64,000 nt of DNA from an uncultured Phycisphaeraceae bacterium (lineage in GTDB: Bacteria; Planctomycetota; B15-G4; JADJEK01). Below are positions 37,193 through 57,205 of the stretch, in pieces. The stretch's first letter is position 1. Every line of letters starts with the position of its first letter. A program made the translations under genes and the position numbers. The stretch spans positions 69,735 through 133,734 of the forward strand of contig CAZYQW010000029.1 of the NCBI GenBank assembly GCA_964649825.1. The letters are read 5' to 3'. The notes below the pieces were generated by a model. It made no database searches, was not told where the DNA came from, and worked only from the letters and a program-made list of their open reading frames with translations.

Positions 37193-38341
37193 ATGATTCA
37201 GCGATCCGGGCCGCTCACTCCCGGTCGGAAGCAAGGCGTGTCCACCGTCCTGGGGAGCGGGCTGATCAGTGCCCTGGGGGTCGTCTCCGTCGCCCTGCTG
37301 ACGGGGGACGCGACGGCGGTGACGCTGCTCGGCGTCTTGGGCGCCCTCGGCGTTGCGCACCTCTGGACCGCACGGAGGCCTCCCCGCCCGCGCCCGGACG
37401 ACGTCGAAACGACCAGCCGGTTTCACGACGACTACCTGCGGCTTGCCGGGCAGTTCGAAGAGGCGCTCGCCGACTACCAGCGCCAGGTCACGTCCGCCGA
37501 GCGGCAGCGCGAGGAGCTGAACACCTGCGTGCGCCGGCGAACCGCCGACCTGATCCGAACGAACCGGCGCCTCGAACGCCTCGATCGGGTCCGCGATGAG
37601 TTCCTCTCCTTGCTCGCGCACGAGCTGCGCACGCCGTTGACGTCGATCCGCTCGTACCTCGAGGTCGCGATCAACCAGACCTCGATCCCGCACGATCGCC
37701 AACAGGACCTGCTGCGCAACTGCCGGCGGCTCGTCCAGAGGCTCGCCAAGCTCATCAACGACCTGATCCACGTCAGCCAGCTCCGTGCTGGCCGATACGA
37801 GTTCCGCATCGTCGCCGTCAACCCCCGCGACGTCCTCGACGAAGTGATCGAGGCGCAGCGGACCTCGATCCAGTCGCGAGGTTTGCGCCTCTGCGTCGCG
37901 CTGCAGGAGAACACCGGCGCGGTCTCGACCGATCGCGACGCGTTCAGCCGGATCCTCGAGGGGGTCGTCACGAACGCGATCCAGCACGGTCCCGACGGCT
38001 CGGAGATCACGATCGAAGCGGCACGGGTCGGAGAGCACGTCGAGATCGCCGTCGAGGACCAGGGATCGGGGGTGTCGCCCGAGGACCACGAGATGATCTT
38101 CGAGCCGTTCTTCAAGACTCGCTCGGTGGGGCAGTCGACGCGCGAAGGGACCGGGCTCGGCCTCTTCCTCTGCCGCGAACTCGCGCAACGCATGGAAGCC
38201 GACCTGCGCCTCGACGCCGCGTCGAAGGGGGGAGCCCGCTTCATCGTCTCGCTGCCGTGCGCGCGGCGCTCCGGCGAGCCGAAGACGCCGCCGGCGACCG
38301 AACGAGGCGTCCCGACCTACCCCAGCTCCACGCGCGGGTAG
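37193..38341 (+). CDS. Sensor histidine kinase (two TM helices, HisKA and HATPase_c). No cognate response regulator is adjacent.
   Basis: The H-box is LAHELRTPLTSI and the G-box is GTGLGLFLCRELAQRM. The N-terminus has 2 TM segments. Confidence 0.85.
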   Translation: MIQRSGPLTPGRKQGVSTVLGSGLISALGVVSVALLTGDATAVTLLGVLGALGVAHLWTARRPPRPRPDDVETTSRFHDDYLRLAGQFEEALADYQRQVTSAERQREELNTCVRRRTADLIRTNRRLERLDRVRDEFLSLLAHELRTPLTSIRSYLEVAINQTSIPHDRQQDLLRNCRRLVQRLAKLINDLIHVSQLRAGRYEFRIVAVNPRDVLDEVIEAQRTSIQSRGLRLCVALQENTGAVSTDRDAFSRILEGVVTNAIQHGPDGSEITIEAARVGEHVEIAVEDQGSGVSPEDHEMIFEPFFKTRSVGQSTREGTGLGLFLCRELAQRMEADLRLDAASKGGARFIVSLPCARRSGEPKTPPATERGVPTYPSSTRG

Positions 38342-40020
38342 GCACGCCACGCGCGCCGCAGCAGGTCCGCGCCCAACAGCGCCGCCGCGTCGTCGGGCAT
38401 GGCGTCGAGGATCGCCTCGCTCATCAGGATGACGAGCTTGCGGCGCGCCCGCGTCAGGCTCACGTTCAGCCGGTTCGGCGAGAAGAAGAAGCTCGCCTCC
38501 GAGAGAACCGCCTGCGGATCGCTCGCCGTCAACGACAGCACGATCAGGTCGCGCTCGCCGCCCTGCAGCCGCTCGACCGTGTCGACGACCGGAAAGCGCT
38601 CCGGTGGTAGATCGAGGCGACGCCGCAGAAGCGCGCGAATCCGATTCCCCTGCGCGCGATGCGGAGCGATGACGGCGACCTCGTCGGGCGAAAGCCCATG
38701 TCCGATCGCGGCCGCCACGATGTCCGCCGCCGCCTCCGCCTCCGCCGGCGCCATCGTGCGCGCCCCGAGGTGCTTCACCGGCACGATCAGCCCCGGCGGG
38801 TCGGGACGCAGGATCGGCCCGGGATCGCCGTCGAGCGCGAGGCGGATGCCGCGGTTCGCGGCCGCCGCTCTCAGCCGCCCGCCGTAGAACGCGGCGCTCG
38901 GGAACGAGCAGAGCTCCTCGTTCATCCGGTACGTCGACGTCAGCAGGTGCGACCCGTAGCGCTCGTGCAGGTGCTCGAACGCCGACCGGAGCGCGAGCGA
39001 GTCCTCGTGCTCGGCCACGACGAGCGGTGGAAGCTGTCGATGGTCGCCCACCAGGAACCGGCGCCGACCGAGCGCCAGCGCGGCGCACGCGTGCGGCATC
39101 GCGACCTGTCCCGCCTCGTCGACGAGGACGAGGTCGAACCGCCGCCCGAGGAGCCGTACGGCCGCGTGCGTCGTTGCTCCGACCACGACGGGGCCGTTCA
39201 GCGCCCCCAGCCCGCGCGGCGTCGGAACCAGCTCGACGCCCTCCTCGTCCAGGCGATCGGCCTGCGACTCGGAGCCGATCTTGACGACGGCCAACTCCCG
39301 ATCGAGGCGCGCGACGGCGCGCAGGACGTTGTTGACGGCACGATGCGTGAACGCCGTCACCACCACCTGCTGGCCGTGGTCGAGGAAGGTCCGCACGAGC
39401 GCGGCGGACAACATCGTCTTCCCCGCCCCCGGCGGACCCTGCACGAGTGTGAACGGACGGCGACACCCATCGATGAACGCGGCGGTCTGCGACTCGTCGA
39501 GCCCATGGCGCGCCGCGTCCGACTCGTCTCCGATCGCCCGGACCGGCGTCCTCTCGGCGTCCCCGGTCAAGAGACGGCGAGTGTCCTCGAAGTCGCGGCT
39601 CGTGAAGACGGCGCGCACCGCGCCGATCAGCCGATCGGTCAGGTCGAGATCGCGCCGATCGAGCACGAGCTCGCCGGACGTATCGATCGGGGTGGGCGCC
39701 ACGAACCGGTCCACCTCGACTCGGATCGTCTCGCCGTTCGGATCGTGATCACGGAAGACGACCTGCATCCCCTCATCGATGCGCTCGCCGTTCGAGATCC
39801 AAAGAAGGTCGCCCGGCCGGAACCTCGACAGGTTCTCCGGACATCCGAGCAGGACGCTCCCGCCGTCGTCTCGGATCCACGAGAGGCCGCGCACGGCTTC
39901 GCCGGACTCGACGCGCTCCTCGAGCGACAGCGCGTGGACCTCGCGCATCGCCTGCGCGCTCGCGCGACGTTCCCGCTCGAGGATCGCGACGAGGCGTTCC
40001 GGAATCGAGCGTCCGTTCAT
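38317..40020 (-). CDS. Superfamily-1 DNA helicase (AAA_11/AAA_12, Dna2/Nam7-like).
   Basis: The internal start is MNGRSIPERL. Walker A is GPPGAGKT, with DEAGQ, GDHRQLPP and a C-terminal VSLTRAR. ATGA overlap with the upstream nuclease gene. The 3' end overlaps the convergent HK gene by 25 nt. Confidence 0.85.
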   Translation of the reverse strand: MNGRSIPERLVAILERERRASAQAMREVHALSLEERVESGEAVRGLSWIRDDGGSVLLGCPENLSRFRPGDLLWISNGERIDEGMQVVFRDHDPNGETIRVEVDRFVAPTPIDTSGELVLDRRDLDLTDRLIGAVRAVFTSRDFEDTRRLLTGDAERTPVRAIGDESDAARHGLDESQTAAFIDGCRRPFTLVQGPPGAGKTMLSAALVRTFLDHGQQVVVTAFTHRAVNNVLRAVARLDRELAVVKIGSESQADRLDEEGVELVPTPRGLGALNGPVVVGATTHAAVRLLGRRFDLVLVDEAGQVAMPHACAALALGRRRFLVGDHRQLPPLVVAEHEDSLALRSAFEHLHERYGSHLLTSTYRMNEELCSFPSAAFYGGRLRAAAANRGIRLALDGDPGPILRPDPPGLIVPVKHLGARTMAPAEAEAAADIVAAAIGHGLSPDEVAVIAPHRAQGNRIRALLRRRLDLPPERFPVVDTVERLQGGERDLIVLSLTASDPQAVLSEASFFFSPNRLNVSLTRARRKLVILMSEAILDAMPDDAAALLGADLLRRAWRAYPRVELG

Positions 40021-41393
40021 CGCGCTCCGGCCTCGCCGCGGCAGAGCTCGTCCCGCAGCCGCGCGATCGTGTCCAGCTCGTGGCGAAGCCGGCGATGGAC
40101 CGACTCGATGTCGGCTCCGGGTTCGCCTTCGAGGTAGCGGAGAGCATCGACGTCGGATGGATCGGCCTCGACCGGCGCGATCCCCGCCGCGCGCGCCGCG
40201 AGGGCGAGCGTGCGATCGAAACCGGGGAGCGCCACCGACCGGCGCAGCTCGGCGCGAAGATCGATCGCGCGGCGTCGAACGCGCTCCACCGCCGAGCCGA
40301 GCCACGGCAGCCGATCCACGATCCGCTCGAGCACGCGTGACAGCGCGGGTCCGAACGTCAGGATCGGACCACGGGAGCGGTCCAGGTTGACGACGAAGGC
40401 ACGAAACTCGGCGAGCGGGTCGATCGCCTCCGGCCGCCGCAGGAACCGCACGAGGAACTTCTCGCGGTCGTCGAGCACGAGCCCGGCGACGGCGATCTCG
40501 GCCGGATCGAGACGCTCGTTGATCAGCGCCACGAGCGCGATCTGCGCCGCCGCGACCTCGTCCCGCGGCGCAACGACGCGCAGCGGCGCGCCGTCGCGGG
40601 CGGCGCGGGCTCGACGCGACACGCGACGCACGAGATCGCTCGGCAACCCGGACGCCCGCGCGGTCGGACCGGGCCGCTCGAGATCCGCGAGGGCGCCGAT
40701 CGACGACACGCCGGCGGCCCGAAGCGCCCCTGCCTGCGCGCGCGTCAACCCCGGCAGGCCCGCGACGTCGTCCTCGACCTCGAGATCCGCCGCGCAGAGA
40801 TCGCGGTAGCGACAGTCGAGGCACGCCTCCGTTCGGTGCGGACCGGGGTCTTCACCGCGACGGGAGTCGTCGATTCGCGCGAGCAGGTGGTCGAGCGTCG
40901 CATCCAGCTCGCCGAGCTCGAAGGGAATCCTCGTTCCGTCGCGGACGATGACGTAGCCGCGGCGCGGCGCCGCGCCGAGCTCGCCGAGCATGCGCGAGTA
41001 GAACGCGACCTGCAGACGAGCCGACGCGTGGACCTTCTGCGAGCTCTTCACGTCGGCGACCTCGTAGACGCCGTCCGAGTTTCTGAGCAGGAGGTCGGGG
41101 CGGCCAAGGCGTTCCGGCGTGATGAGCACGCCGTTCGCGATCGCGCTCGCGCCCTCGTCCATCAGCGCGCACGTCGCCTCGAACCCAGTCTGGAAGTCGC
41201 CGCGCTCGAACTCGACATCGACCGGCGCGATGTCCTCGAGGATGCGCGCCTCGACCCGACGGCCGGTACGGAACAGCACCTCCATGCGTGGTGTCGGGGG
41301 CAGCTCGACCTCCTTCGGGCGATGGAAGGAAAGGTACGGAATCCTCGCGCAGGTGAGGTACTCCTTGACTCGGGTGCCATCGACGGGACGCAT
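40017..41393 (-). CDS. RecB-like PD-(D/E)XK nuclease (TM0106-type) partnered with the SF1 helicase.
   Basis: YLTCARIPYLSF and DGVYEVADVKSS (D...E-x-K) are present. A C-terminal Cys cluster reads CLDCRYRDLC. It is translationally coupled to the helicase. Confidence 0.7.
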   Translation of the reverse strand: MRPVDGTRVKEYLTCARIPYLSFHRPKEVELPPTPRMEVLFRTGRRVEARILEDIAPVDVEFERGDFQTGFEATCALMDEGASAIANGVLITPERLGRPDLLLRNSDGVYEVADVKSSQKVHASARLQVAFYSRMLGELGAAPRRGYVIVRDGTRIPFELGELDATLDHLLARIDDSRRGEDPGPHRTEACLDCRYRDLCAADLEVEDDVAGLPGLTRAQAGALRAAGVSSIGALADLERPGPTARASGLPSDLVRRVSRRARAARDGAPLRVVAPRDEVAAAQIALVALINERLDPAEIAVAGLVLDDREKFLVRFLRRPEAIDPLAEFRAFVVNLDRSRGPILTFGPALSRVLERIVDRLPWLGSAVERVRRRAIDLRAELRRSVALPGFDRTLALAARAAGIAPVEADPSDVDALRYLEGEPGADIESVHRRLRHELDTIARLRDELCRGEAGAR

Positions 41394-41899: not shown

Positions 41900-42872
41900 C
41901 GGCGGGCATGGCGGGTCGCGGGTGCGGCTCGTGATCGAACCACGAACGCCGTGGGATCGACTCCGGACGACGAGCGCGCGACCCGGATCGGGCTCCACGT
42001 CCTCGGTCCAGACGATCGTATCCTTTCGGCAGAGGCGGGCCTCGCGGGTGACACCGGGAAGGTGAACGCGGCGTCGAGCCCGTTTCTCGAGCGGTTCGCG
42101 GAGAACGAACGTCCCGGTCGCGCGATCGAGGACGAACTCGGCATCCAGGGCCCGGGGACGTGATGCGCATCGGCGCGCCGGGATCCACAACCAGACGACG
42201 GCGTCCGTGGTCGTGCTCGGATGGACCTCGACCTCCTCCAAAGCGGTGACGAAACCCTCTGCCCGTACTTCGACGCGAACGATCCCGGTCGGGACTCGTG
42301 GCGGTCACGGAAAGTCGGAGTTCACGTGTGAGTCCACGCGTTCCGCGCGTTCGGCCCGAGGATCCTTCGCGGGCGCGGGCGGCGACACGGGAGAGCCGCG
42401 GAACGCGCGCACGATCAGCACCACGACGAGGGCGGCGAGTGAGATCCAGACGAAGCGGCGAAGGAGCGTCTTCATGGGCGTTCCACGCCGAGTCTACTGG
42501 TGTTCGGTGACGGGGCATCAATCACGGGACTTCAGAACCTCCACGATGTCGATCCGGCCGAGCCGGCGCCAAGCGCTGGCTGGCTTGGCGCGGCTCATCC
42601 CGCGTCCAGGCGGGATTACCCGAGAGGGTCGGACTGGTCGTCGAGCTGACGAGATCAAAGAACCCGTGCTCCAGGGTGCGCAGCCGTCTCTTCCCCGCCG
42701 CCAGAGCCCGACTTGCCGACGCGCCCCTTCTTGCGAACGCGGTCGGACCCGTCGGCAGGGATCCGGTCAACGGACCCAATTGAATCCGGGGGCCGCTCGC
42801 CATTAGGATGCCCTGGCTTGAATACCATGGGGGCCGCGATCGCCGCTCCCAACGCCCCGTTGGGGGAAGAAC

Positions 42873-43235
42873 ATGAAGGGCGACGCCATGCTGGGACTCG
42901 AGCTTCGAGAGGAATTCCGCGGCAAGCGGCTGAAGGGCACGCAGATCGAACTGCCGGACGCAGTCAACCTGGCGGCCGCCGACTTCCTGCGGATCACGTA
43001 CCCGAGTGGGGACGTGCTTTCCGCCGTCGAGCCCATCGGGCCGGAGCAGGGACATCCTGTGGTCCTCATCGGCGAGCCCGGCCAGGGCAAGTCGCACTTG
43101 ATGGCGGCCCTCGTCCACGCCCTGAACGACCCGACCACAACTCCGTCATCGTCTCCGTCATCGCCGCCTCTGCAGATGTCCCCATGTCGCGGTGCGTCAG
43201 CTTTGCTCTATTGTGAGTCCGGACTTGATGTGTGA
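42873..43235 (+). pseudogene. A 5' fragment of a P-loop ATPase gene, truncated after Walker A.
   Basis: GGGGGA lies 6 nt before the ATG. After GHPVVLIGEPGQGKSHLMAALVHAL the frame degenerates into a low-complexity TTTPSSSPSSPP tail and a stop inside the 19-bp tandem repeat. The length is 120 aa where about 400 or more would be expected. Confidence 0.45.
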
Positions 43236-43249
43236 GTCCGGGCTTGATG
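43212..43249. repeat. Tandem 19-bp direct repeat (TGTGAGTCCGG[A/G]CTTGATG, two copies) at the pseudogene/sce7726 junction.
   Basis: The two adjacent copies differ at one position. The repeat overlaps the stop of the truncated ATPase and the 5' leader of the sce7726-like gene. Confidence 0.7.
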
Positions 43250-43297
43250 CGCGTCTCGAGGCCGCACCGGCAACCGCCCGGCGTCGTGGAGGCAACC

Positions 43298-43891
43298 ATG
43301 AGGAGCAGTGACCTGGTCCTGCGGGACGCTGATATCCGACCGGCACTGCGCTTGAAGCTGGTCGGCAAGCACGCTGACGAAGCCAACACGGTCATTATCG
43401 AGGAGTTGGGCGTCTGCCGTGGACGCGTTCGAGTTGACCTGGCGGTCGTCAACGGCACGCTCCACGGCTACGAGATCAAGTCGGACCGGGACAGCCTGCG
43501 GCGTCTGACCACGCAGATCGACTTCTACGGGAGGGTCCTCGATCGAGCGACGCTCGTGGTCGGCGAGCGTCACCTGCCCAGTGCGCTCGGCGTCCTTCCG
43601 GCGTGGTGGGGTGTCCTTCACGTCCAGCAGGCGCCCCGCAGGCAGCGCTTCAAGACCATCCGCCGCGGGCGGAAGAACCCCCAGAGAGATCCTCGCGCGC
43701 TCGTGGAGCTGCTCTGGCTGGATGACGCGCTCGCCCTTCTGGAGACACGCGAGGTTGCGAAGGGCGTCAGGGGCAGGCCGCGGCGGCTCGTATGGGATCG
43801 GGTGTGTGAGCACTTCAGCGTCGACGAGATCGCAGCAGCCGTCCGAGCACAACTCAAGGCCAGGGCAGCGTCGCAAGTCCCTCCTGAATGA
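43298..43891 (+). CDS. sce7726-like PD-(D/E)XK-fold protein.
   Basis: GGAGG lies 7 nt before the ATG at 43298. RVDLAVVNGTLHGYEIKSDRD is a canonical D...(D/E)xK nuclease core. The 197-aa protein is convergent with the sce7725-like gene and overlaps it by 38 nt. Confidence 0.7.
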   Translation: MRSSDLVLRDADIRPALRLKLVGKHADEANTVIIEELGVCRGRVRVDLAVVNGTLHGYEIKSDRDSLRRLTTQIDFYGRVLDRATLVVGERHLPSALGVLPAWWGVLHVQQAPRRQRFKTIRRGRKNPQRDPRALVELLWLDDALALLETREVAKGVRGRPRRLVWDRVCEHFSVDEIAAAVRAQLKARAASQVPPE

Positions 43892-44921
43892 CGAGCGAGA
43901 TGTGGTGAATGGTCCCGAGGCGGCGCCAGGCCTCGGCAGATCCGAAGCCACCGGCCCGGTCAGCAGCGGCCTTCATCGACTTGCAGCCTTCACAATGCGC
44001 CGGACCAAAGAAGCTGGATCGCAGATGTCCATACACGAGCTTGGTCGCAAGTGCGGGAAACTGCACCCCCGGCCGCGTGACGCGGGTGCTCTCCCCCTTG
44101 ATGAGGAGCCAATCATCCGGCATTGCGTACCGGATCGAAGCCGACATCTGCATGATCCGAGGGTCAAAGCCCTCGACACCCGTGGGGTACTGAATAGCGC
44201 AGTCGCTGAAGGTGGGGAGCCGCGCAAGGCGACCCCGTGCTTTATGGAGGCGGTCGCGCCAGGCGATCCACTCCACTCGCTCGACAAGGTTGTCAGAGTT
44301 GCGGGCAACGCCGCCCCTCATGGGGAAGGCGCACGCGGAGATGGTGAAGGTCCGCCACCGCCGGTGATCAGGAACGTCGGATAGGAACGCTGCCGTCAAG
44401 GCGGCAACGCCGTCCACGATCATCTCGTCGACCGCACCCAAGTCGACGATCAAATCCGTTCCTTCCGGCGCGAGCCCGTGTTTCGCCATGAACGCTTGGA
44501 GGCTCCCGGTGAGGTTCCCGCTCTCGAACTCCTCGCGGGTGAGCCTCAGCGCGATCCCATGACGTTGATGCGCAAGGGCTGCGGCCAGGTCGGCGGTCCG
44601 CGAAATCCCGGTGACCGGCGTGAAGACGATGCCGGCCGAGTTCGCCCGTCGGAAGACCTCGAGGGCGGCCGCCGGACCGTCAGAGGCGATCTCGCGGGCA
44701 TCGAGGAAGCACCTCGCATAGGAGATGACGCTGCCCGCGAGACCCTTGAATGCGTTGTCGAGGTGGGCAGCGACCGTCGCGGCCTTGTCGGCCTTTCGTT
44801 CGACGACTTCCAAGAGGGGCGTGATGCGCGCCCGAAGGGGTTGCAGGACCGAGCCGAGAGCACTCTTCTCGCCGCGTTTCACCTTCAGCACCGGAACGTA
44901 GTGGTGGTCGCCGAAGGTCAT
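43854..44921 (-). CDS. sce7725-like protein (355 aa), partner of the sce7726-like gene.
   Basis: GGAGG lies 8 nt before the ATG. MTFGDHHYVPVLKVKRGEKSALGS...CEGCKSMKAAADRAGGFGS. It overlaps the PIN gene stop by 4 nt. Confidence 0.65.
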   Translation of the reverse strand: MTFGDHHYVPVLKVKRGEKSALGSVLQPLRARITPLLEVVERKADKAATVAAHLDNAFKGLAGSVISYARCFLDAREIASDGPAAALEVFRRANSAGIVFTPVTGISRTADLAAALAHQRHGIALRLTREEFESGNLTGSLQAFMAKHGLAPEGTDLIVDLGAVDEMIVDGVAALTAAFLSDVPDHRRWRTFTISACAFPMRGGVARNSDNLVERVEWIAWRDRLHKARGRLARLPTFSDCAIQYPTGVEGFDPRIMQMSASIRYAMPDDWLLIKGESTRVTRPGVQFPALATKLVYGHLRSSFFGPAHCEGCKSMKAAADRAGGFGSAEAWRRLGTIHHISLVIQEGLATLPWP

Positions 44922-45529
44922 GGGGCACCTCCGGTTCGAGGATCCCAGAGGACAAGCGGAGCCAGCTCAGCGGCGAGGCTCTCGTAGTACGAGATGAGTG
45001 CTTCGCGGGGAGCCGCGTTCCCTATCGAGAAGCAGCCCTGGATCATCTTGTCCGCTGCGGCGACTGGCGCGAGACGCTCCCGAACTGCATCCGCTCCGAG
45101 TTGATCGCAGAGGGCGAGAAGTATGGCCTCCAGCACTACGATTCGACCCGAGAGCGCAGAGGGGAATCCTTCGACGTCCTTGAGAGCGCGCAGTGCCCGC
45201 TTGTCGCCGGACACCACGAGCAGGTTCGCCTCGGCCGCCGCGGCGAAGAGCTGGGCCTCACCGACGTCGATCCCCTCGACAGGGATCAGGAGGTCGAGCC
45301 AGGTATCGCTGGGCTTGGGCATGACGGGAATGGATTCCGCGACCGGGATCAAGGCGTCGCAGACGTCCCCACCGAGCTGCTTCCGGAGCCTGCCCCTGCG
45401 CAGCATGTGCGGGAGGGCCGCCAGCCTGCCGCAATCGCCAAGGCCCGCCGCGAGCAGGCCAGCCGCGTCGCTGAGCAGCCCCGCGGCCTGCAGCTTGCAG
45501 AAGACATCCGTGTCAACCAGCAGCTTCAT
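44918..45529 (-). CDS. PIN-domain (DUF4411-like) putative ribonuclease.
   Basis: The internal start is MKLLVDTDVFCK (first PIN Asp). EAQLFAAAAE and LLVVSGDKRAL supply the further acidic residues. The ATG is embedded in the last 17 nt of the upstream ImmA-like gene. Confidence 0.65.
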   Translation of the reverse strand: MKLLVDTDVFCKLQAAGLLSDAAGLLAAGLGDCGRLAALPHMLRRGRLRKQLGGDVCDALIPVAESIPVMPKPSDTWLDLLIPVEGIDVGEAQLFAAAAEANLLVVSGDKRALRALKDVEGFPSALSGRIVVLEAILLALCDQLGADAVRERLAPVAAADKMIQGCFSIGNAAPREALISYYESLAAELAPLVLWDPRTGGAP

Positions 45530-46496
45530 CGCGTTCCGGGTCGCCGTAGACGCAGCGGAGCAGAGCGCGGTCACTCTCGGTCGCGGCATCCAGGTCAACG
45601 TAGCGGTCGAAAAGCTGGCGCAGCTGCTTGCGAGCACCCGCCCCCCGGTACAGAGCCTTCACCGCCATCGTCGCCTTCGCATAGTCCCCGGTGCGTCGAG
45701 CCCACGCGAAGATTACGGCGCTCGCGTCGGCGCCTGTTGTGCGCTCGATCTCCGCAGCCAAGCGTGCGAGCTCCTTGAAGCTGCGCCCGTCGACTTGTGG
45801 AACCGAGTCGCCGCCGACGACGACACGGGTGGCGAACTGGTCAGCGCGGATCTCGATGTCCGCATCGTCCGCGATCTCCTCCTCCTCGTCCACAACAGGC
45901 TGGCCTGGGGCGCAGTCGCCGGCAGCGACGTGGCCTGCTTCGTGGGCGGCGAGAAACGCGACACGCCCGGGTTCGTCATGCTTGTGGGCGAGCAGGATGA
46001 CTGGTCTGCCCTCGACGACGCAGGCAATGCCCTGGAAGCTTGGTGCTGGAAGCACCTCGAGGGGGACAACGGGCACACCCCTCATCCACAGGTCGGAGAC
46101 GATCTCGGTCAGCGTCAGCGCCATACCGGCACGATCGATCTCGTCGCGCCAGGCGAGGCCGTCGTCGGGAGGCACCGCGACTTGAGGCTTCGAGTCGCGA
46201 AGGCAGCGAACGACGGCGGCTGCGATTCTGGTTGCCGAGTGGATCGCTGGTCCAAGTCGGTCGCGGTCTACATCTCGGACGCGTCTGAGCTGCGCCTGGG
46301 GGTACTCGGGCGCGGCTATCGCTGCGCCGGGATCAGCAACCGCCGCCAGCGGTAGCCCAAGGAAGCGCGCGACACGAATCTCGACGTCTTGGAGGAGGCG
46401 AGGATCGTCAGCGCAGCTGTCATCCCACCATTCGGGCAGGATAGCCGGGCACACGAAGTCCTTCTTGAACCCCGCGCGGGACAAACGGCGCATCAA
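45513..46496 (-). CDS. ImmA/IrrE-family zinc metallopeptidase domain protein.
   Basis: LAAHEAGHVAAGD contains an HExxH zinc site. GC3 is visibly lower than in core genes. An AT-richer promoter-like region lies at 46497-46640. Confidence 0.7.
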   Translation of the reverse strand: MMRRLSRAGFKKDFVCPAILPEWWDDSCADDPRLLQDVEIRVARFLGLPLAAVADPGAAIAAPEYPQAQLRRVRDVDRDRLGPAIHSATRIAAAVVRCLRDSKPQVAVPPDDGLAWRDEIDRAGMALTLTEIVSDLWMRGVPVVPLEVLPAPSFQGIACVVEGRPVILLAHKHDEPGRVAFLAAHEAGHVAAGDCAPGQPVVDEEEEIADDADIEIRADQFATRVVVGGDSVPQVDGRSFKELARLAAEIERTTGADASAVIFAWARRTGDYAKATMAVKALYRGAGARKQLRQLFDRYVDLDAATESDRALLRCVYGDPERDEAAG

Positions 46497-46789
46497 GGTC
46501 GTGTACGTGTGCTTCGCCAGCGGACTGCTCCATTCGTTGTGTGCTCTCAGGTGTCAACGTATGCAAGTTTCATTCCGCGTAGCGATCGAGCGGCGCGGGG
46601 AGGATAGGAACTCCAAACTACCGCTGCACACGGTCGGCGTCGAGTTGACGGATCACACGTGTCGTCGAAAGGTCTCGTGCCGTTCGTCCCCACTCATCCG
46701 TTCGACGGATCGGGTCGAGGCGACGGCTGGGTTCGCGTTTCCGTCGTCGGGGTCGGTGTCGTCGGGTCCGACCGCGTCCAGCGTCGCCT

Positions 46790-47130
46790 CGATGAGGCTC
46801 GCGCGCGCGGCGTCCAGCTCGTAGGCCGCGACCTGGACCGCGAACTGGGCGGCCCGTCTCCCCTGGCGGGCGCTTTCCTCGTCGCGCATCGCGAGGACGA
46901 GCCGGTTCTTCCCCCTCGATCCCCTCCGCGGCGAGCTCGCGGACGCGATCGGGCAGAGTTTCCGCGTAGCGGAGGTCGGCTTCCGCTTGTTTCTCGCGGG
47001 CCTTCGCTTCGTGGAGCGACGCCTCCGCGCGCGCGTCCGCGCCTCGGCCTCGGCCCGGGTCCGCGCGTCGAGGAGCTCCTGCGGCTTCTCGCCGTCGTTG
47101 ACGAGGACGAGACGAGCCGCCGTGGACCGA
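46790..47130 (-). pseudogene. Degraded remnant of an HlyD-family membrane fusion protein gene (frameshifted).
   Basis: Two adjacent minus-strand frames each give coiled-coil MFP-like text (EASLHEAKAREKQAEADLRYAETLPDRVRELAAEGI and FAVQVAAYELDAARASLIEATLDA), but no single frame is intact. Confidence 0.3.
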
Positions 47131-50097: not shown

Positions 50098-50880
50098 TCA
50101 ATCACTCGGCAACAGTCGCAGCATCCGCTGCTCCACCAACACCCGGAAGTGACTCGCCATGCTCAAGGCGAGCGGGCGGTCGCGGACCAGCACCCCCACC
50201 TCGATGTTCCGATCGAACGCGGCCTCGGTGAGGTTCGCAGAGGTCACGAAGACTGCCTCGTCGTCGGCCACGACCGCCTTGGCGTGGAGGACGCCGGAGG
50301 GGCGCTCGGGGTCGAGGGCGCGCGGGTCGTAGAAGACCGTGGGCCGCGCCTGGCCGGGCCAATCCTCCTTCCAGAGACGATCGGCGAAGCTCCGCACGAG
50401 CTGGTCGGCGGGCGCGGGATCGCCGCGCTTGCGCTGGATGTTCAGCAGGAGGGTCACGCGGAGGCCGGGGCACGCGTCCATGCGGCGGGCGAGGAGTTGG
50501 AAGGCCCGGGGGCCGTCGAAGTAGGCGTACGTGCTGATCCAAAGCGACCGGGTGGCCCCCGCGAGGAGCTGGTCGAACGCGTCGCGGGTCCGGCGGACGT
50601 GGAGGCCGGGGACCTCGGGGCCGGACCAGACCAGGTCCGGCCGGATCTGCTTCGCGGTGACCGCTTCCACGGTCCGGAGCCAGGCGGCAGCGCCGCGCCC
50701 GGACACGCCGATGCGATCCAGGTCGCGAAGGCCGGTGGCGATCGCCTCGATGCCGTCCTCCAGGCCCACGGTGGCGCGCAGCGACGCGGCGGCGTAGGGC
50801 GGACCCAAGAGCCCGCTGTCGAGGGCCGCGGCGAGGCGCTGGCGCTGGTGGGATGGCAGGTCGAGGAGGGGCTCGATCAT
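50098..50880 (-). CDS. drmC: Phospholipase-D-family nuclease, DISARM DrmC-like.
   Basis: The HKD motif is HAKAVVADDEAVFVTSANLT. The 260-aa protein overlaps the drmB stop by 4 nt. Confidence 0.8.
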   Translation of the reverse strand: MIEPLLDLPSHQRQRLAAALDSGLLGPPYAAASLRATVGLEDGIEAIATGLRDLDRIGVSGRGAAAWLRTVEAVTAKQIRPDLVWSGPEVPGLHVRRTRDAFDQLLAGATRSLWISTYAYFDGPRAFQLLARRMDACPGLRVTLLLNIQRKRGDPAPADQLVRSFADRLWKEDWPGQARPTVFYDPRALDPERPSGVLHAKAVVADDEAVFVTSANLTEAAFDRNIEVGVLVRDRPLALSMASHFRVLVEQRMLRLLPSD

Positions 50881-52679
50881 TCCACGAGCCGGAAGAAGGC
50901 CGCGTCGGGCTCACCGAGAACAGGCACGACGAGGGCGCGGTCGAGGTAGTCGTTGCGCATCTCGCATGAGGTCTCGGCGACCAGGGTGCAGCCGTGGCAA
51001 GCGGCGCCGTGCAGGAAGCGCTTCTCCAGGCTCGAGGCCGGGGAGTGCTGGGCGCACACCGGGTCGTTGGAGCAGAGCGCCGCCATGCGGAGCGCGTTCG
51101 CGAGGTGATCTTCGATGTGGCGGCCCTGCTGGACGAGTCCGCCGAGCGTCCCCTCCGCGTCGGGGGTACCGGTGTACAGGAGCACGCCGTAGCGCTCACC
51201 GTCGGGGTCGGAGTACACACGCTCGCGGATGGAGCTCGCCGGGTAGCCACAGCGCATCGCGAGCGACTGGATGAGGAGATGGGACAGGGTGTGGAGGAGG
51301 ACGTAGGGCCCCCCGGGAAACGACCGCTTGCCCCGGCCTCTCCCATCGTCCTGCCACCGCTTGTACCCCGCGGCCAGGTCGTCGACGCGGGCCTTCACAA
51401 CGGGCCGCGCGAGCCACGCCGCGATCATCTCGGCGCGCAGATGAAGAAACACACCCTCCCCGCGGTTCTCGACCGCCGGGAACCAGGTGGGCTCCTCGTC
51501 GAGCTCGGCCCGCACGACGTCGGTGTCGTACTCGCCGTTGATGTCGGGCGTGACGGCCTCGAACCGCGTGAATCCAACCAGGGCGAGGACCTCGCGGAGG
51601 CGGTGGAGCTGGACGACGCTCTGGACGCCCGCGAAGCGATCCGACTTGTGCCAGACCGATTCGGGCAGCCGGCGGGCGTGGAAGTTGAGGTCGATGGGGA
51701 CGTCATCCCCGAAGCCCTCGAGCGCGGTGAGCAGCGCGTCCAACTCCACCTGCTTGACCGGCCGTTCCTCTACCACTCCCGCCTTCATCTCGCTGATGAT
51801 CTGCAGGACCTCGCGATCTCCGTATGGCGCGAGCTTCTCGGCGACGCGGGGCTTCCTCTTCACGGTCGCCAGGTCGCCCGCGTCCTCGACGATCTGCAGG
51901 TCGTCCCAGAGCTCGGTGAACACGGCGCGCGCCTTCGCGCCCTGGTCCGGCAGCGACAGCACGCTCACGACCTGGGGGAAGTATGCGTTGGCGGCGGTCC
52001 GGATGAGAAGCCGGCTCGGCAGGGAGCACTCCTCGCTCGCACCGCGCCCCAGCCACGGCATCGCCCCGCTGCATGTCCCCAGCGCTTCGCTCTCGGAGGC
52101 CTCGTAGAGGCTTCGCGGCGCCACCTCTTTGCACTCGCAGCGGATCGAGAGGTCCGCGAGATCGCCGGTCGTCCCCGTCTCGTCGAGCCAGAGCTGCAGG
52201 CGACATGTCGAGTCGGGTCCGTGAAGGAAGCGGTGCCATTGGATGTCATCGACGTGGCCACGCGGGCACGCGCGGACGAACCGCGTGGCCACGACCCGGA
52301 GATTCTCGAATCGCCCGTGGTCGAGCAGCTTGCGATGGACGAGCCGCCGCGACCGCGCGCTCCGGTCGCCCTCCGGCGGGGGCTCCTGGACCACGTACCA
52401 TTCGGGGAAGCGATACGCGCTGATGCCTCTTCGCCGGTGATCCGACCAGTCGTCCGATTCGATCGGCGGCGCGAACATTCGCGGATCGTCCACGTCCGTC
52501 ATCATCTGGAGCTTGCGCTCGAGCCGGGGCTCGACGACGGGCTCGAGTTCGCTGGTCGGCCCCCACGTCCGGAGACCGCCGAGGATCGCGGAGTCCTTCG
52601 GCAAATCGATCAACGCCCCAGGCCCGTAGGTCAGGATCACCTGGCTGCGCCGGAGCTGTCCGTGCGCTTTTCGTCTCAT
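50877..52679 (-). CDS. drmB: DUF1998-domain protein, DISARM DrmB-like.
   Basis: The 600-aa protein carries the C-terminal Cys motif typical of DUF1998/MrfB (SNDPVCAQH...HGAACHGCTLVAETSCEMRN). It overlaps the drmA stop by 4 nt. Confidence 0.8.
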   Translation of the reverse strand: MRRKAHGQLRRSQVILTYGPGALIDLPKDSAILGGLRTWGPTSELEPVVEPRLERKLQMMTDVDDPRMFAPPIESDDWSDHRRRGISAYRFPEWYVVQEPPPEGDRSARSRRLVHRKLLDHGRFENLRVVATRFVRACPRGHVDDIQWHRFLHGPDSTCRLQLWLDETGTTGDLADLSIRCECKEVAPRSLYEASESEALGTCSGAMPWLGRGASEECSLPSRLLIRTAANAYFPQVVSVLSLPDQGAKARAVFTELWDDLQIVEDAGDLATVKRKPRVAEKLAPYGDREVLQIISEMKAGVVEERPVKQVELDALLTALEGFGDDVPIDLNFHARRLPESVWHKSDRFAGVQSVVQLHRLREVLALVGFTRFEAVTPDINGEYDTDVVRAELDEEPTWFPAVENRGEGVFLHLRAEMIAAWLARPVVKARVDDLAAGYKRWQDDGRGRGKRSFPGGPYVLLHTLSHLLIQSLAMRCGYPASSIRERVYSDPDGERYGVLLYTGTPDAEGTLGGLVQQGRHIEDHLANALRMAALCSNDPVCAQHSPASSLEKRFLHGAACHGCTLVAETSCEMRNDYLDRALVVPVLGEPDAAFFRLVE

Positions 52680-55600
52680 GCCGAGTCTCCCGCCTCCGCC
52701 CCGTTGAGCTCCCTCAGGAACAGGTTCACCTCGGGCTCTACGTCGCGAAGCGACCGGTTCGCGCGGAACTTCCGGTGGTCCTCGGACTTGTCGGTGTCCA
52801 GCATTTCCCGAAGCAGAGGCCGCGGCCCGCGCACTTCGTACTTCTGGTACTGCATCCGGGCACCGACCTCACGCGACTCCGCTACAACTCGCGCCCAGGA
52901 ATCGAGGAGGTCCGTGACGCGCTGTTGTACGCTCAGCGCCCGCTCCGCCCGCTCCTGCTCGTCCATGCGCGGCTGCCCGGCGACACGGCGCAGGAAGGTG
53001 TCTCGCAACTCCGACTCGAGCCCGGCGCGGACATCGTCGATCCCTCCGACCGCTTCGGCGGGCGTCAGCTCCCGGCGCGCGTGGCGGGCGAGCGCCACCA
53101 ACGCCCCGGCGAAGCCCCGATCGAGGGCCCGCGCCGAGAACGGGGTGACGCTGGCCGGCTCCACCGCGCGATAGAACGTCTCGTGGTAGTGTCGAAAGCG
53201 CTCGTAGTGCGACCGGTCGCGCGGCTTGTGCATGTTGAGCAGCGTCACCACGAGGCCTGGCCGCTGGTCGTCGCGACCGACGCGGCTGGTCGCCTGGATG
53301 TACTCCGCGTGCGTCTTGGGCTGGCCGAGCACGACCATCAGCCCCAGCCGGGGGATGTCGAGGCCGACCGAGATCATGTTCGTGGCGATCGCGAAGTCGA
53401 CCCGCCGCTCTTCGTGGAACTCGCAGCTCAGGCGCTGCTTCGCTTCGGAGACCCCGCTGGTGGGGACGCGCGAGGTCAACTCCATGACCTCGGAGACTCG
53501 CTTGCGATCCTGGAATAGCCCTCGGTCCTCCCCCGCGCGCCGGCGGTTGCCGTAGCCCTTCAGGGTGTTCTGGACCTCCTCCTCGAGGATGCGGCGGCAG
53601 CCGCCGAGCTCGCGTAGGCTGTTGAAGTACCCGAGCACCGTCATGTACGGATCGGCGGGGTTCTTCTCGTTGCGGTGGCCGCCCGCGTCGCGGTACGCCC
53701 GCTCCGCCGCACCCATCAGGGCCAGCCAAACGCGGCGGAGGATCACCTTCGGATTGCGACCCTGCGAGGCCACGCCGAGGTACAGGCGGGCGGCTTTCCG
53801 CTCGACGCCCACCTCCGCCGCCGCCTGCGCGTCGGATGGGACGACCCGAGCGAAGAACGAGTCCCTTCGGTCGGGCCCGGGTGGCGGGAAGACCATGGTC
53901 TGGGGACGCCCGAAGACGGCCTGGATCTGCTCTGCGGCCTGGCGGACGGTGGCCGTCGACGCCACGATCTTCGGCTTGATCGCCTTGCCATCGACCTCGC
54001 GCACGATGAGGGCCTCGATCACCGTCTCGTACAGGCCGGCCATCGTGCCGAGCGGCCCCGAGATGAGGTGCAGCTCGTCCTGGATGATCAGGTCGGGCGG
54101 CGGCAGCGGGGCAGGGAGCCTGGAACCCTGGCCGGGCTCGGCATTGCCGTAGAAGCCGTGCTTGTCGTGCCGCTCGGCACCGCCGAGAAGCGCACCCGAC
54201 GGGCCGACCCAGGGCAGCGACGCGAACTTGTCCACGGTGGCGATGAGGAATGCCGGCAGCCGCCGGTAGATCGGCTCATCGACGGCGAGGATGGGGAGCG
54301 GGCGCTCGCGGGAGAAGTCGCATTCGAAGTTGACGCACACGATGCGCAGCTCGCGCGGCCGGTCGGCGTCCGGCTGCAAGTCGAACGAGTCCGGCTCGAA
54401 CCTGGTGCCGCACCACGGGCAGGTCTCGATGGGGATCGGGGACGGGTTCGCGTGCGGGTCGCGCTTGTAGTCGCGCACCTTGATCCGGGCGGTGTCCGAG
54501 ACCTTGTCGCCCTTGTGACCCATCCGGTTGGGCGTCGCCGCCTTGCCCACCCACAGCCCGATCTCGAAGGGCCACGTCCCGTAGCGCCCGGGATCCGCGC
54601 TCCGCTCGAGTTCCAGCGCGCACACCAGCCCCGCAGCCCGGCCGAGCTGATCGAGCGTGAGGAGGCGGAGGGTGTAGCGCATGAGGACGCTCACGCCCGC
54701 GCTCTGGAGCCCCGCGTTCCGCAGCCGGCGCAGGACCATCGTGTAGGCGGCGAGTCCGAGGTACGCCTCGGTCTTGCCGCCGCCGGTCGGGAAGAACAGC
54801 AGGTCGACCGTGTCGCGGTGTTTGCTCGGGTCGGTCGGATCCGCGATGCCGGACACGTTGAGGAGCACGAAGGCGAGCTGGAACGCGCGCCAGGCGGGTG
54901 CGTCGTCCCGCGACCGCCGCTGGAGAGCGCGGGCCACGGCGCGGTTCGCGACCCGAAACGCGTCCAAGGCGCTCGGGTCGGCGCGCAGGGTCTCGATGCC
55001 CTGGTCGATGCGGTCGGCGGCGGCGCGCGCGAGAACGAGGAGCCCCTCCACGGTCTCTCGCCGGGAATCGCCGAGCCTCCCCAGCACGCCCCGCTGCGCC
55101 GCGATCCAGGCGCGGTAGTGCACCACCAGCGGCCGAAGCGCCTGCGCTGCCGCCTCACCGTCGGCCAGGGCCCCGAGCTCGAGCATCCCGAGCGTCGCCC
55201 CTTCGATCTTCGATGTCTCGGTCCGCTCCACCTCGGCGTTCGGCACCCATGCGGTGCGCAGCTCGCGGCAGCGGCCATCCACCACCGACCACTCCGCGGA
55301 CACGCCGTGCCCCGCCGCGTACTCCGGCGCGTCGGCGTAGTGGACGTCGGCGACGCGCTCGTCCCAGTCGCGCGCCCGCGAGCCACGCGGATCCGGCCGG
55401 GGCACGAACGACTCCTCGCAGCGAACCCTGAGGCTCGCCTGGAACGCGTAGGCGCGGTCGGGGTTGTCGGTGTCGGGCGCGCGCCGGTTGATCAGGAAGA
55501 CCGAGATCGAGCGCGTTCCCGGGGGAATCTCGTTCGCGAACTCCCGCGCGTCGACGGCGCGATCGACGACGTGGAGCTGGAGGCCGCCGGAGCTCGGGAC

Positions 55601-56137
55601 ATCCAGGACGCACGGCTCGCGGCTCCCGCTGCCAAGGCGGACCCGGACGGGCTCCTCGCGGGCGTCCCGCTGCCACACGGACAGCGGCTTCCCGTCCTTG
55701 TCGGCCATCTCGCCGCGGTCGTAGTCCCCCCACCCGACGACGACGTCCAGGGCGGAGCACGCCGCCGGGACGAGGAAGCTCAAGCCCATGGACGACGGGA
55801 AGTAGCTCTTCTTCGCCGCGCGGCGTTCGTCCGCGCTCTCCTCCTCCAGACCGGCGTGCTCGGGCACGACGTCGAGGTCGTCGTCCTCATCCTGGTCGCC
55901 GGCCAGCTCGGGCGGCGTTCCCGTGGGGATGAGGAAACCCGTCAGGTACCAGTTGGACGGCCGCTCCCAGCCGCGCAGGCGCTCCTCCGCGTACGCATGA
56001 CCGGCCCAGGGACCCACCAGGTCGAGCTCGAGAGCTTCGACGAGGCGCGCTCGGATCGCCTCGGAGTCGACCGCGGTCGAGACCTCCCCGCCGTGCCCGT
56101 CCGTCACCGCATCGCTCCGTTCATCGGCACTCATCAT
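52676..56137 (-). CDS. drmA: Large SF2 helicase, DISARM DrmA-like.
   Basis: Walker A is FFPTGGGKTEAYL. DELH reads IIQDELHLISGP and motif VI reads QATSRVGR. The start ATGATG at 56137 overlaps the last 17 nt of darG. The track's longer ORF start at 56233 is less likely. Confidence 0.8.
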   Translation of the reverse strand: MMSADERSDAVTDGHGGEVSTAVDSEAIRARLVEALELDLVGPWAGHAYAEERLRGWERPSNWYLTGFLIPTGTPPELAGDQDEDDDLDVVPEHAGLEEESADERRAAKKSYFPSSMGLSFLVPAACSALDVVVGWGDYDRGEMADKDGKPLSVWQRDAREEPVRVRLGSGSREPCVLDVPSSGGLQLHVVDRAVDAREFANEIPPGTRSISVFLINRRAPDTDNPDRAYAFQASLRVRCEESFVPRPDPRGSRARDWDERVADVHYADAPEYAAGHGVSAEWSVVDGRCRELRTAWVPNAEVERTETSKIEGATLGMLELGALADGEAAAQALRPLVVHYRAWIAAQRGVLGRLGDSRRETVEGLLVLARAAADRIDQGIETLRADPSALDAFRVANRAVARALQRRSRDDAPAWRAFQLAFVLLNVSGIADPTDPSKHRDTVDLLFFPTGGGKTEAYLGLAAYTMVLRRLRNAGLQSAGVSVLMRYTLRLLTLDQLGRAAGLVCALELERSADPGRYGTWPFEIGLWVGKAATPNRMGHKGDKVSDTARIKVRDYKRDPHANPSPIPIETCPWCGTRFEPDSFDLQPDADRPRELRIVCVNFECDFSRERPLPILAVDEPIYRRLPAFLIATVDKFASLPWVGPSGALLGGAERHDKHGFYGNAEPGQGSRLPAPLPPPDLIIQDELHLISGPLGTMAGLYETVIEALIVREVDGKAIKPKIVASTATVRQAAEQIQAVFGRPQTMVFPPPGPDRRDSFFARVVPSDAQAAAEVGVERKAARLYLGVASQGRNPKVILRRVWLALMGAAERAYRDAGGHRNEKNPADPYMTVLGYFNSLRELGGCRRILEEEVQNTLKGYGNRRRAGEDRGLFQDRKRVSEVMELTSRVPTSGVSEAKQRLSCEFHEERRVDFAIATNMISVGLDIPRLGLMVVLGQPKTHAEYIQATSRVGRDDQRPGLVVTLLNMHKPRDRSHYERFRHYHETFYRAVEPASVTPFSARALDRGFAGALVALARHARRELTPAEAVGGIDDVRAGLESELRDTFLRRVAGQPRMDEQERAERALSVQQRVTDLLDSWARVVAESREVGARMQYQKYEVRGPRPLLREMLDTDKSEDHRKFRANRSLRDVEPEVNLFLRELNGAEAGDSA

Positions 56138-57191
56138 CCCCGCGCCCACCCGGAGCACCGAGCCAGCCTCGGCGCGCGAGGGTCTCGCGAGCGATGCCGA
56201 TCTGACGGGGAGTGAAGCGCTTCTTGCGCTCATCCCAGGCGTGCGTGCACGCGATCAACTCGCTCTCGGAGGTCACCCCATCGCGGACCACCACCCAGTG
56301 CACGGTCGCGAGCAACTCGAGGCCCGAGGGCGTCTCGAAACCCTCGACCAGCGCCGCGACCCGATCGAACCGGGCCTGCGTCTCCGGTGCAGCCGCCAAC
56401 ACCGCGCGAGCCTGTTCCACGGCCCCCGGCATGAGCTCCAGCACCTTGTCCGGAGCGTCGCCGCCGTCGCCGTAACCGGTCACGTAGTGGCCCTCGATCT
56501 CCCGCAGCACGTGGCGGAGGTTCTCGACGTATGGGCCGTAGTAACCCTTCTTCACGCGCAGACGGAGGTTCTCGCCCGCCTCCTGCATGAAGTACATGAG
56601 CTTGTGGATCTCCAGGAGCGACGCGAAGGGATCGAGCAGCCCAGCGGTGTAGCGGTCGATCAGGCCGATGAGCGCGGCCCGCCCCGCGGTCATCGGCGGC
56701 GCCGCGGCGCCACGGTTCGGCGTCGCCCGCGGTCGCGCCGGCGACGGCTCGAAGATCGTCACGCGCACCTCGGCCAGGTCGCGCAGCGCCTGCTCGATGC
56801 GCGCCCGCACCTGGCCCCACTCCAGGCCACCCAGACCCGCGCCGAGGGGAGGAATGGCCACCGAGCGGATCCCTCGCTGCTCGATCTCGGCGACCAGCGC
56901 CGCCAGGCCCGCGTCGATGTCCTCCATGCGCGACTTGCCGCGCCAGTGCCGCTTGGTCGGGAAGTTGATGATGAAGCGCGGGGGCGTCAGGCGCCCGGTC
57001 TCGAAGACGAACATGCGGCCCGGCTGGACCTCGCCGCGGCGGCACGCGGCGGCGTAGGCGCGGAAGTTGTCGGGCCAGGCCTTCTTGAACTGCAGCGCGA
57101 TGCCACGCCCCATGAACCCGACGCAGTTGACGGTGTTCACGAGCGCTTCCGCGTCCTCCGCGAGGAGATCGCCGGTCTTGAACTCGATCAT
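56121..57191 (-). CDS. darG: DarG antitoxin (macro-domain ADP-ribosyl hydrolase plus C-terminal DarT-binding domain).
   Basis: The internal start is MIEFKTGDLLAEDAEALVNTVNCVGFMGRGIALQFKKAWPDNFRAY, a macro domain with GIA and LGAGLGG elements. It lies 14 nt downstream of darT. The protein is 356 aa. Confidence 0.8.
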   Translation of the reverse strand: MIEFKTGDLLAEDAEALVNTVNCVGFMGRGIALQFKKAWPDNFRAYAAACRRGEVQPGRMFVFETGRLTPPRFIINFPTKRHWRGKSRMEDIDAGLAALVAEIEQRGIRSVAIPPLGAGLGGLEWGQVRARIEQALRDLAEVRVTIFEPSPARPRATPNRGAAAPPMTAGRAALIGLIDRYTAGLLDPFASLLEIHKLMYFMQEAGENLRLRVKKGYYGPYVENLRHVLREIEGHYVTGYGDGGDAPDKVLELMPGAVEQARAVLAAAPETQARFDRVAALVEGFETPSGLELLATVHWVVVRDGVTSESELIACTHAWDERKKRFTPRQIGIARETLARRGWLGAPGGRGDDECR

Positions 57192-57205
57192 CGCGGCTCC
57201 TCGGT

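Follow-up and report, generated by a model that had tools for sequence, protein, structure and literature searches.

What system is encoded by two convergent genes, for proteins of 197 and 355 amino acids (aa), that lie within a defence island of an uncultured Phycisphaeraceae bacterium? The pair is found in a 64,000-nucleotide (nt) stretch of contig CAZYQW010000029.1, called here the window, and an earlier note on this DNA had read it as a sce7725/sce7726 couple with no established function. We find that both genes belong to a 3.4-kb cassette of four genes, delimited by blastn at 43154-46556 as the unit common to other genomes. These genes encode homologues of the cII and beta proteins of phage P4, an ImmA/IrrE-type (M78) metallopeptidase and a 203-aa protein whose family is unannotated. 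Membership of the cassette in the family of the antiphage systems gop-beta-cII and PD-lambda-2 is very likely, and it is probably an intact, horizontally acquired copy of a four-gene unit that is widespread within this group.

The cII-like gene occupies 43298-43891 on the plus strand (197 aa, ATG start), and the three other genes are on the minus strand, namely the beta-like gene (43854-44921, 355 aa), the gene of the 203-aa protein (44918-45529) and the gene of the M78 peptidase, 326 aa long and without a helix-turn-helix (HTH) domain (45513-46493). The two open reading frames (ORFs), their GGAGG sites, the 38-nt overlap of their 3' ends (43854-43891) and a 19-base-pair (bp) tandem repeat in the cII leader are all present as first described. 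GGAGG is found at 43288-43292, 5 nt ahead of the ATG of the cII-like gene, and again 6 nt ahead of the beta ATG. On the minus strand, the start of the beta-like gene overlaps the stop of the 203-aa gene by 4 nt (ATGA), and the 203-aa gene overlaps the peptidase gene by 17 nt. The start of the 203-aa gene was placed by alignment of 37 homologues of 197-206 aa: the true start is the conserved ATG at 45529, and the maximal ORF of 239 aa is too long. The G+C content at third codon positions is 0.74-0.79 in the cassette genes versus 0.86-0.92 in neighbouring genes.

A hidden Markov model search confirmed that the 197-aa protein belongs to the sce7726 family, with 166.3 bits against NCBIfam NF033832 (cut-off 70) over residues 9-190 of 197. 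This family is the same as Pfam PF26915 (Phage_P4_cII), a domain also borne by the cII relatives. Similarly, the PADLOC model 'cll' recognizes the window protein (2e-31) and P4 cII (376 bits), and the two proteins share 32% identity across 119 aa (E 4e-18). Among 18 diverse homologues, P4 cII included, residues E36, D47, E59, K61, D65, R69 and Q73 are invariant and Y77 is nearly so, which corresponds to a PD-(D/E)XK pattern with QxxxY after it. In the AlphaFold model, with a predicted local distance difference test (pLDDT) score of 90.9, the core is alpha-beta-beta-beta-alpha-beta; D47 belongs to its strand 2, E59 and K61 to its strand 3, and a C-terminal helical domain follows. When this model was compared with the PDB by Foldseek, the matches were weak, and the specific ones (SfsA, YaeQ, RecE) are PD-(D/E)XK folds. 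Comparison with BFVD retrieved phage MmcB-like DNA repair proteins, a Mrr-type restriction endonuclease, Endonuclease I-like and PD-(D/E)XK proteins, with E values down to 9e-12. The cII profile had no match among PDB sequences. Since the sequence pattern and the predicted fold agree, the nuclease core initially recognized in this protein is supported, and cII is a predicted PD-(D/E)XK nuclease.

In several cassettes of other genomes (L006/L007, L016, L026, L030 and L034), beta has been truncated or lost and cII remains intact; L016 lacks the 203-aa gene as well. Given these decayed cassettes, cII alone may persist or be useful.

The convergent partner turned out to be a beta family protein, not a sce7725 protein. 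It aligns with Pfam PF14350 (Beta_protein) at 172.2 bits (cut-off 27), residues 8-345 covering profile positions 1-341 of 342, and matches the PADLOC models PD-Lambda-2_C over their full length (1.1e-26 and 3.1e-26). It misses the PADLOC 'beta' model, and its identity with P4 beta is 21% (BLASTP E 2e-6). Its close relatives are named 'beta family protein' by the NCBI Prokaryotic Genome Annotation Pipeline (PGAP). A preprint matching this name deals with 2TM-beta effectors and was set aside as irrelevant. The search of NCBIfam with the window protein gave nothing at E <= 0.01, and at E <= 10 only a chance match to DdrC. None of the 10 beta-like proteins tested matched a sce7725 model, a negative which assumes that such a model is present in NCBIfam release 20.0, as its sister NF033832 is; six other beta-like partners of cII are without any NCBIfam match. 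For the plasmid relatives of cII that were inspected, the partners are annotated as 'beta family protein' or hypothetical. The assignment to sce7725 was consequently rejected in favour of the full-length Beta_protein match.

The model of the beta-like protein (pLDDT 84.7) consists of alternating strands and helices, and its only PDB matches are generic (beta/alpha)8 barrels with template-modelling (TM) scores of 0.3-0.4, such as dihydropteroate synthase, triosephosphate isomerase, dehydroquinase and EAL domains; its predicted fold is barrel-like. Searching PDB sequences with the beta profile gave no match. Six residues, Y8, P10, E18, R126, D240 and H340, are invariant throughout the superfamily including P4 beta, and D160, R190, R215 and Y265 are nearly so. 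These conserved positions look like a binding or active site and not like a simple antitoxin peptide. A zinc site HCxxC..HH was also considered as a general feature of beta and was discarded, being invariant inside the cassette subfamily and not across the superfamily.

Both proteins thus lead to described antiphage systems. The gop-beta-cII system guards E. coli from lambda and P1 (Rousset et al., PMC9122126), and Ghisotti 1990 is cited there for the toxicity of gop when beta is missing (PMC9122126); the phage accessory gene orf184 triggers cell death via this system (bioRxiv 10.1101/2023.04.06.535777). PD-lambda-2 (Vassallo et al. 2022) is composed of a HigB-like protein A, an Xre-peptidase B, which is toxic alone and neutralized by A, and protein C, the beta protein, described as 'related to a P4 phage antitoxin' and required against lambda-vir; its phenotype is abortive infection (PMC9519451). 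Since beta and cII are part of this known antiphage family, the view that the pair has no established function had to be abandoned: two systems of the family are published (PMC9122126, PMC9519451). In P4 itself (NC_001609, 247-2540; catalogued by DefenseFinder and PADLOC as 'Gop_beta_cll'), gop encodes 133 aa, beta 355 aa and the convergent cII 264 aa, the latter annotated 'sce7726 family protein'.

The two upstream genes were earlier described as a PIN and ImmA module coupled to the partner of cII. Coupling stands, with the 4-nt overlap reported above; the PIN assignment is unconfirmed, and the ImmA likeness is confined to the central HExxH core, with no HTH. The HExxH motif (H184, E185, H188) is invariant among the homologues of the peptidase. 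Peptidase_M78 is matched by 26 of the 31 homologues (best E 1.4e-6), and the window protein itself reaches 18 bits versus the Pfam cut-off of 22. The profile of the peptidase family matches CapP 7t5t (6e-4) and IrrE 3dte. Its alignment with a genuine PD-lambda-2 B protein joins residues 135-297 to the peptidase half of B (hhalign probability 90.7%, E 1.3e-6, 154 columns), and the PADLOC PD-lambda-2 B model is matched by the window protein only at profile positions 246-346 of 402 (3.9e-4). The N-terminal 134 aa are unrelated to the Xre HTH, and Pfam detected no HTH domain in either the window protein or its homologues.

The 203-aa family includes at least 707 homologues, none of them annotated, and residues D6, D8, D109 and D160 are invariant. 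The protein has no Pfam, NCBIfam or PADLOC family, and a PDB profile search was without relevant match. Pfam PIN matches were obtained with four of the 37 homologues, all below threshold (best E 0.005), and none with the window protein. Judging from its sequence motifs, the 203-aa protein possibly has a PIN-like or another DxD-motif alpha/beta fold. It has no similarity to Gop by BLASTP or hhalign, and the hhalign probability of its family against genuine PD-lambda-2 A is 0.5%.

To what extent do these four genes form a unit? The comparative scan, in which each species was represented by one genome, yielded 229 cII relatives, from which 80 loci were retained. Beta is encoded in 77 of these loci and is directly convergent on cII in 75, which bears out the co-inheritance of cII with a convergent partner that had been proposed earlier. 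All four cassette genes are present in 44 loci from more than ten phyla, among them Acidobacteriota, Myxococcota, Nitrospirota, Chloroflexota, Gemmatimonadota, Planctomycetota, Pseudomonadota, Actinomycetota, Desulfobacterota and Schekmanbacteria, and hundreds of metagenomic homologues share the four-gene architecture at 55-90% protein identity. The fine organization is maintained as well: the 17-nt overlap of the peptidase and 203-aa genes is kept in 32/37 cassettes, the 4-nt overlap of the 203-aa gene and beta in 26/37, and the convergent overlap of beta and cII, 23-56 nt long, is always 2 mod 3 (35/35 cassettes measured).

The limits of the unit are sharp at the DNA level. Two loci, L092 and L093, are continuously 87% identical to the window by blastn across exactly 43154-46556, and about 40 further loci have 63-80% DNA identity, all inside these limits. 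The flanks of the cassette vary by genome and include a SNF2 helicase with a methylase, DruA, MmeI, a DUF4011 helicase or housekeeping genes. For instance, in L002/L008 and L092, which contain the closest relatives of the window cassette, the cassette directly adjoins genes for a 924-aa helicase of the SNF2 family, a protein of 169 aa and a large protein resembling N6/N4 methyltransferases, and L002 additionally has a DruA gene and insertion sequence (IS) elements nearby. Flanking inverted repeats (I1/I2) were tried as the ends of an element and were rejected, since these 70-79% matches occur in GC-rich DNA and beyond the limits of the shared unit. Contig L088 of an independent public assembly (Logan SRR10083321, 4372 bp) is 100% identical to 42468-46839 and ends shortly outside the cassette on both sides; these ends could reflect strain variation around the island.

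More distant loci reveal another level of variation. When cII is less than 50% identical to that of the window, beta is kept and the other upstream genes differ. Complete PD-lambda-2 A and B genes lie upstream in L073 and L078 (B 512 bits, A 119-130 bits), and five more loci combining PD-lambda-2 with cII were detected by tblastn. Seven loci (L060, L063, L072, L073, L078, L079 and L086) carry complete or contig-limited PD-lambda-2 A, B and C with a convergent cII directly after C; PD-lambda-2 as published was read as a three-gene system, without cII. In L076, L080, L081, L084 and L087 (Stenotrophomonas, Nocardiopsis), an unannotated protein of about 373 aa, with no PADLOC or NCBIfam match, is encoded upstream of a beta convergent with cII. 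Some plasmid beta/cII pairs have no recognizable upstream module. Because the distant loci keep the pair behind other genes, beta with convergent cII appears to be the constant part, a core common to these systems, and the module upstream of it appears to be exchangeable.

The leader of the cII-like gene raises a separate question, that of the 19-bp repeat, which was initially placed at the truncation point of an upstream ATPase gene and regarded as a possible operator or insertion scar. The region upstream of cII (43154-43297, plus strand), a presumed promoter and leader, is conserved among the window, L092 and L002 only. Here the tandem duplication occupies 43212-43249, 49-86 nt before the cII ATG, with copies at 43212-43230 (TGTGAGTCCGGACTTGATG) and 43231-43249 (TGTGAGTCCGGGCTTGATG) that have one A/G difference. 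Tandem Repeats Finder (TRF) reports a period of 19, 2.0 copies and a score of 69. The 19-mer has two matches in the window versus 0.05 expected and occurs nowhere else in it; two matches were not reached in any of 100 shuffles. In L092, the nearest relative with leader sequence, the leader reads ...CTGTTG, then a single TGTGAGTCCGGACTTGATG, then CGCGTCTTGAGG; in the window, the unit occurs twice and is followed by CGCGTCTCGAGG as in L092. One diverged copy is present in L002, the leaders of more distant cassettes are unrelated, and none of 97 other loci fetched contains the 19-mer. Since the nearest relative is single-copy, the repeat is a lineage-specific duplication and not a conserved operator; most simply, it arose by recent replication slippage (slipped-strand) in the cII leader, and at most it would change cII expression. 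The first copy also contains a perfect 10-bp palindrome, AGTCCGGACT, at 43216-43225, which is intact in L092 and is broken in the second copy by the A-to-G change. This palindrome could be a chance occurrence, with about 0.15 expected per 150 bp.

Nor does the repeat mark the insertion junction, because it begins 58 nt inside the left end of the cassette at 43154. The truncated gene is a P-loop nucleoside triphosphatase (NTPase) remnant (42873-43140, plus strand) in the flanking DNA, outside the cassette. Its Walker A motif is GEPGQGKS, it has only weak AAA/NACHT P-loop matches, and the related loci contain nothing corresponding to it. The protein sense of the ORF (42873-43235) ends at about 43140 (...GKSHLMAALVHALNDP), after which it reads through cassette DNA. 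Given that coding sense is lost at about 43140 and cassette homology starts at 43154, the truncation is not at the repeat; it lies about 60-70 nt to its left, and the junction was thus moved to 43140-43154. Exactly at this left junction, TRF detected a 12-bp tandem, CTCCGTCATCGT, in 1.9 copies (43141-43163), which could stem from microhomology where the cassette was inserted or from slippage on a second occasion.

The position of the pair in a defence island, already noted earlier, is borne out by the neighbouring genes. A class 1 DISARM operon lies on the minus strand at 50098-~62000, 3.5 kb from the cassette. It consists of DrmC (50098-50880, 266 bits), DrmB (50877-52679, 279 bits), DrmA (52676-56233, 914 bits), DrmMI (57853-~61758, 1294 bits) and an ORF that is probably DrmD (61785-63956), all on this strand. 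Between DrmA and DrmMI, also on the minus strand, a DarG-like macrodomain protein is encoded (56121-57488, PADLOC DarG 438 bits), an unusual insertion in a DISARM operon with no evident DarT partner. On the other side of the cassette, at 38317-41393 of the minus strand, are found a superfamily 1 (SF1) helicase (AAA_11/AAA_12; PADLOC MkoA and DpdJ-like) and a 458-aa Cas4-like PD-(D/E)XK protein, which may be another defence or repair pair.

How could such a cassette work? By analogy with PD-lambda-2 and P4, it would be a toxin-antitoxin-like abortive-infection system directed against phages. The toxic/neutralizing or signal-processing pair would consist of the M78 peptidase and the 203-aa protein, which replace gop of P4 and the HigB-like A and Xre-peptidase B of PD-lambda-2. 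Beta, which would be needed for defence, could couple a phage cue to the release of toxicity, and cII could supply a DNA-directed nuclease activity or DNA sensing. The convergent, overlapping transcription may in addition set the dose of cII relative to the operon. Homology to tested systems, together with the defence-island context, makes it reasonably likely that the cassette gives phage defence. This particular distribution of roles among the four proteins, drawn by analogy, is doubtful. Indeed, several observations weigh against the proposal. Two of the four proteins are without counterpart in the tested systems, the cassette having neither gop nor a HigB-like A, and the window peptidase is without the Xre domain that defines PD-lambda-2 B. 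The N-terminal LLxDTDxF (hhhDxDxF) motif of the 203-aa protein fits PIN and equally a HAD-type motif I. The roles given to beta differ between the known systems, as it serves as an antidote in P4 and as an accessory factor needed for defence in PD-lambda-2 (PMC9122126, PMC9519451), and we found no separate test of the role of cII in the literature on gop-beta-cII and PD-lambda-2. Finally, scanning the cassette for promoters and terminators gave no match to a sigma-70 or terminator consensus.

Some of the same features could be expected from a toxin-antitoxin module that merely stabilizes mobile DNA by addiction, with no antiphage role: a cell that lost it would die, and its presence in defence islands would reflect nothing but integration hotspots. 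Such a module is suggested by the fact that gop and beta are a toxin-antidote pair (PMC9122126), by the related beta/cII pairs on plasmids and phage-plasmids, and by the passage of the cassette across phyla as a compact unit. Nevertheless, both tested relatives protect against phages (PMC9122126, PMC9519451), the neighbours are repeatedly defence genes, and strict addiction is difficult to reconcile with the decayed copies L006, L016 and L026, which keep cII and have lost beta or upstream genes. We consider addiction alone an unlikely explanation. Equally, the match of the peptidase profile to CapP and IrrE, and that of the cII model to phage proteins annotated as MmcB-like DNA repair, could indicate a DNA-damage or SOS-like switch, in which the M78 peptidase would sense damaged or single-stranded DNA and cleave a partner, and cII would be a repair-type, MmcB-like enzyme, the whole serving repair or a neighbouring element. 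Such a switch is quite improbable, as the cassette encodes no HTH repressor that could be the substrate, its unrelated contexts offer no constant neighbour to regulate, and CapP-type proteases themselves serve defence systems.

The first interpretation of the locus, an unassigned sce7725/sce7726 pair with the 19-bp repeat as an operator or as the scar of an insertion into the ATPase gene, retains hardly any probability. It is true that membership of cII in sce7726 is real, that the repeat is non-random and has the palindrome in its first copy, and that a truncated P-loop gene lies just upstream. Against it, the partner fails sce7725, and the repeat is single-copy in the closest relative, absent elsewhere and internal to the cassette. 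An antiphage cassette of the gop-beta-cII and PD-lambda-2 family is the reading that we retain as probable.

The comparison of loci links gop-beta-cII and PD-lambda-2, so far catalogued separately and without a known mechanism, through the core of beta and convergent cII. The four-gene architecture is a third arrangement, which may be the common one; none of the PADLOC models tried recognizes it as a whole system, and we found no paper describing it in the literature. A broader proposal, which we put forward as possible and tentative, is that beta and convergent cII are the conserved engine of a large defence superfamily, a triosephosphate isomerase (TIM)-barrel enzyme or ligand sensor coupled to a PD-(D/E)XK nuclease. 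Gop, the HigB/Xre-peptidase pair, the M78-peptidase/203-aa pair and the 373-aa protein would then be swappable input or toxin modules, gop-beta-cII and PD-lambda-2 would be one family with cII as an overlooked fourth gene of PD-lambda-2, and the 2-mod-3 overlap would regulate the beta:cII ratio. The invariant nuclease residues of cII, the barrel residues of beta and the HExxH of the peptidase are defined targets for experiments.

How, then, does the cassette compare with the systems already known? Annotated sce7725 and sce7726 pairs occur in Leptospira and P. aeruginosa islands (PMC12457778, PMC9394441); relative to such pairs (NF033831/NF033832), the window cII belongs to sce7726, whereas its partner matches no sce7725 model. 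With ImmA-ImmR, IrrE-DdrO and CapP-CapH, the cassette has in common the HExxH M78 core; unlike them, it does not encode a cognate HTH repressor, and its flanking domains bear no recognizable likeness to theirs.

In both the cassette and P4 gop-beta-cII, a Beta_protein of 355 aa is encoded by the last gene of a short operon and faces a convergent sce7726-family cII with the same E..D..ExK..Q signature. Unlike the P4 system, the cassette has no PADLOC gop match, and two other genes precede beta. Furthermore, P4 cII is longer (264 aa versus 197 aa in the window) and has a different C-terminal part, and its gene is separated from that of beta by a 27-nt gap with an annotated terminator, whereas the window pair overlaps.

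PD-lambda-2 differs from the cassette in its HigB-like A (~94 aa), for which PADLOC gave no match in the cassette, and in its B component (Xre HTH and M78 peptidase, ~400 aa), with which the window peptidase shares only the peptidase half; the gene order is peptidase, 203-aa gene and beta in the window versus A, B and C in PD-lambda-2. On the other hand, the window beta is recognized as component C, an M78 peptidase gene is present in the same operon, and natural PD-lambda-2 operons, like the window, bear a convergent cII.

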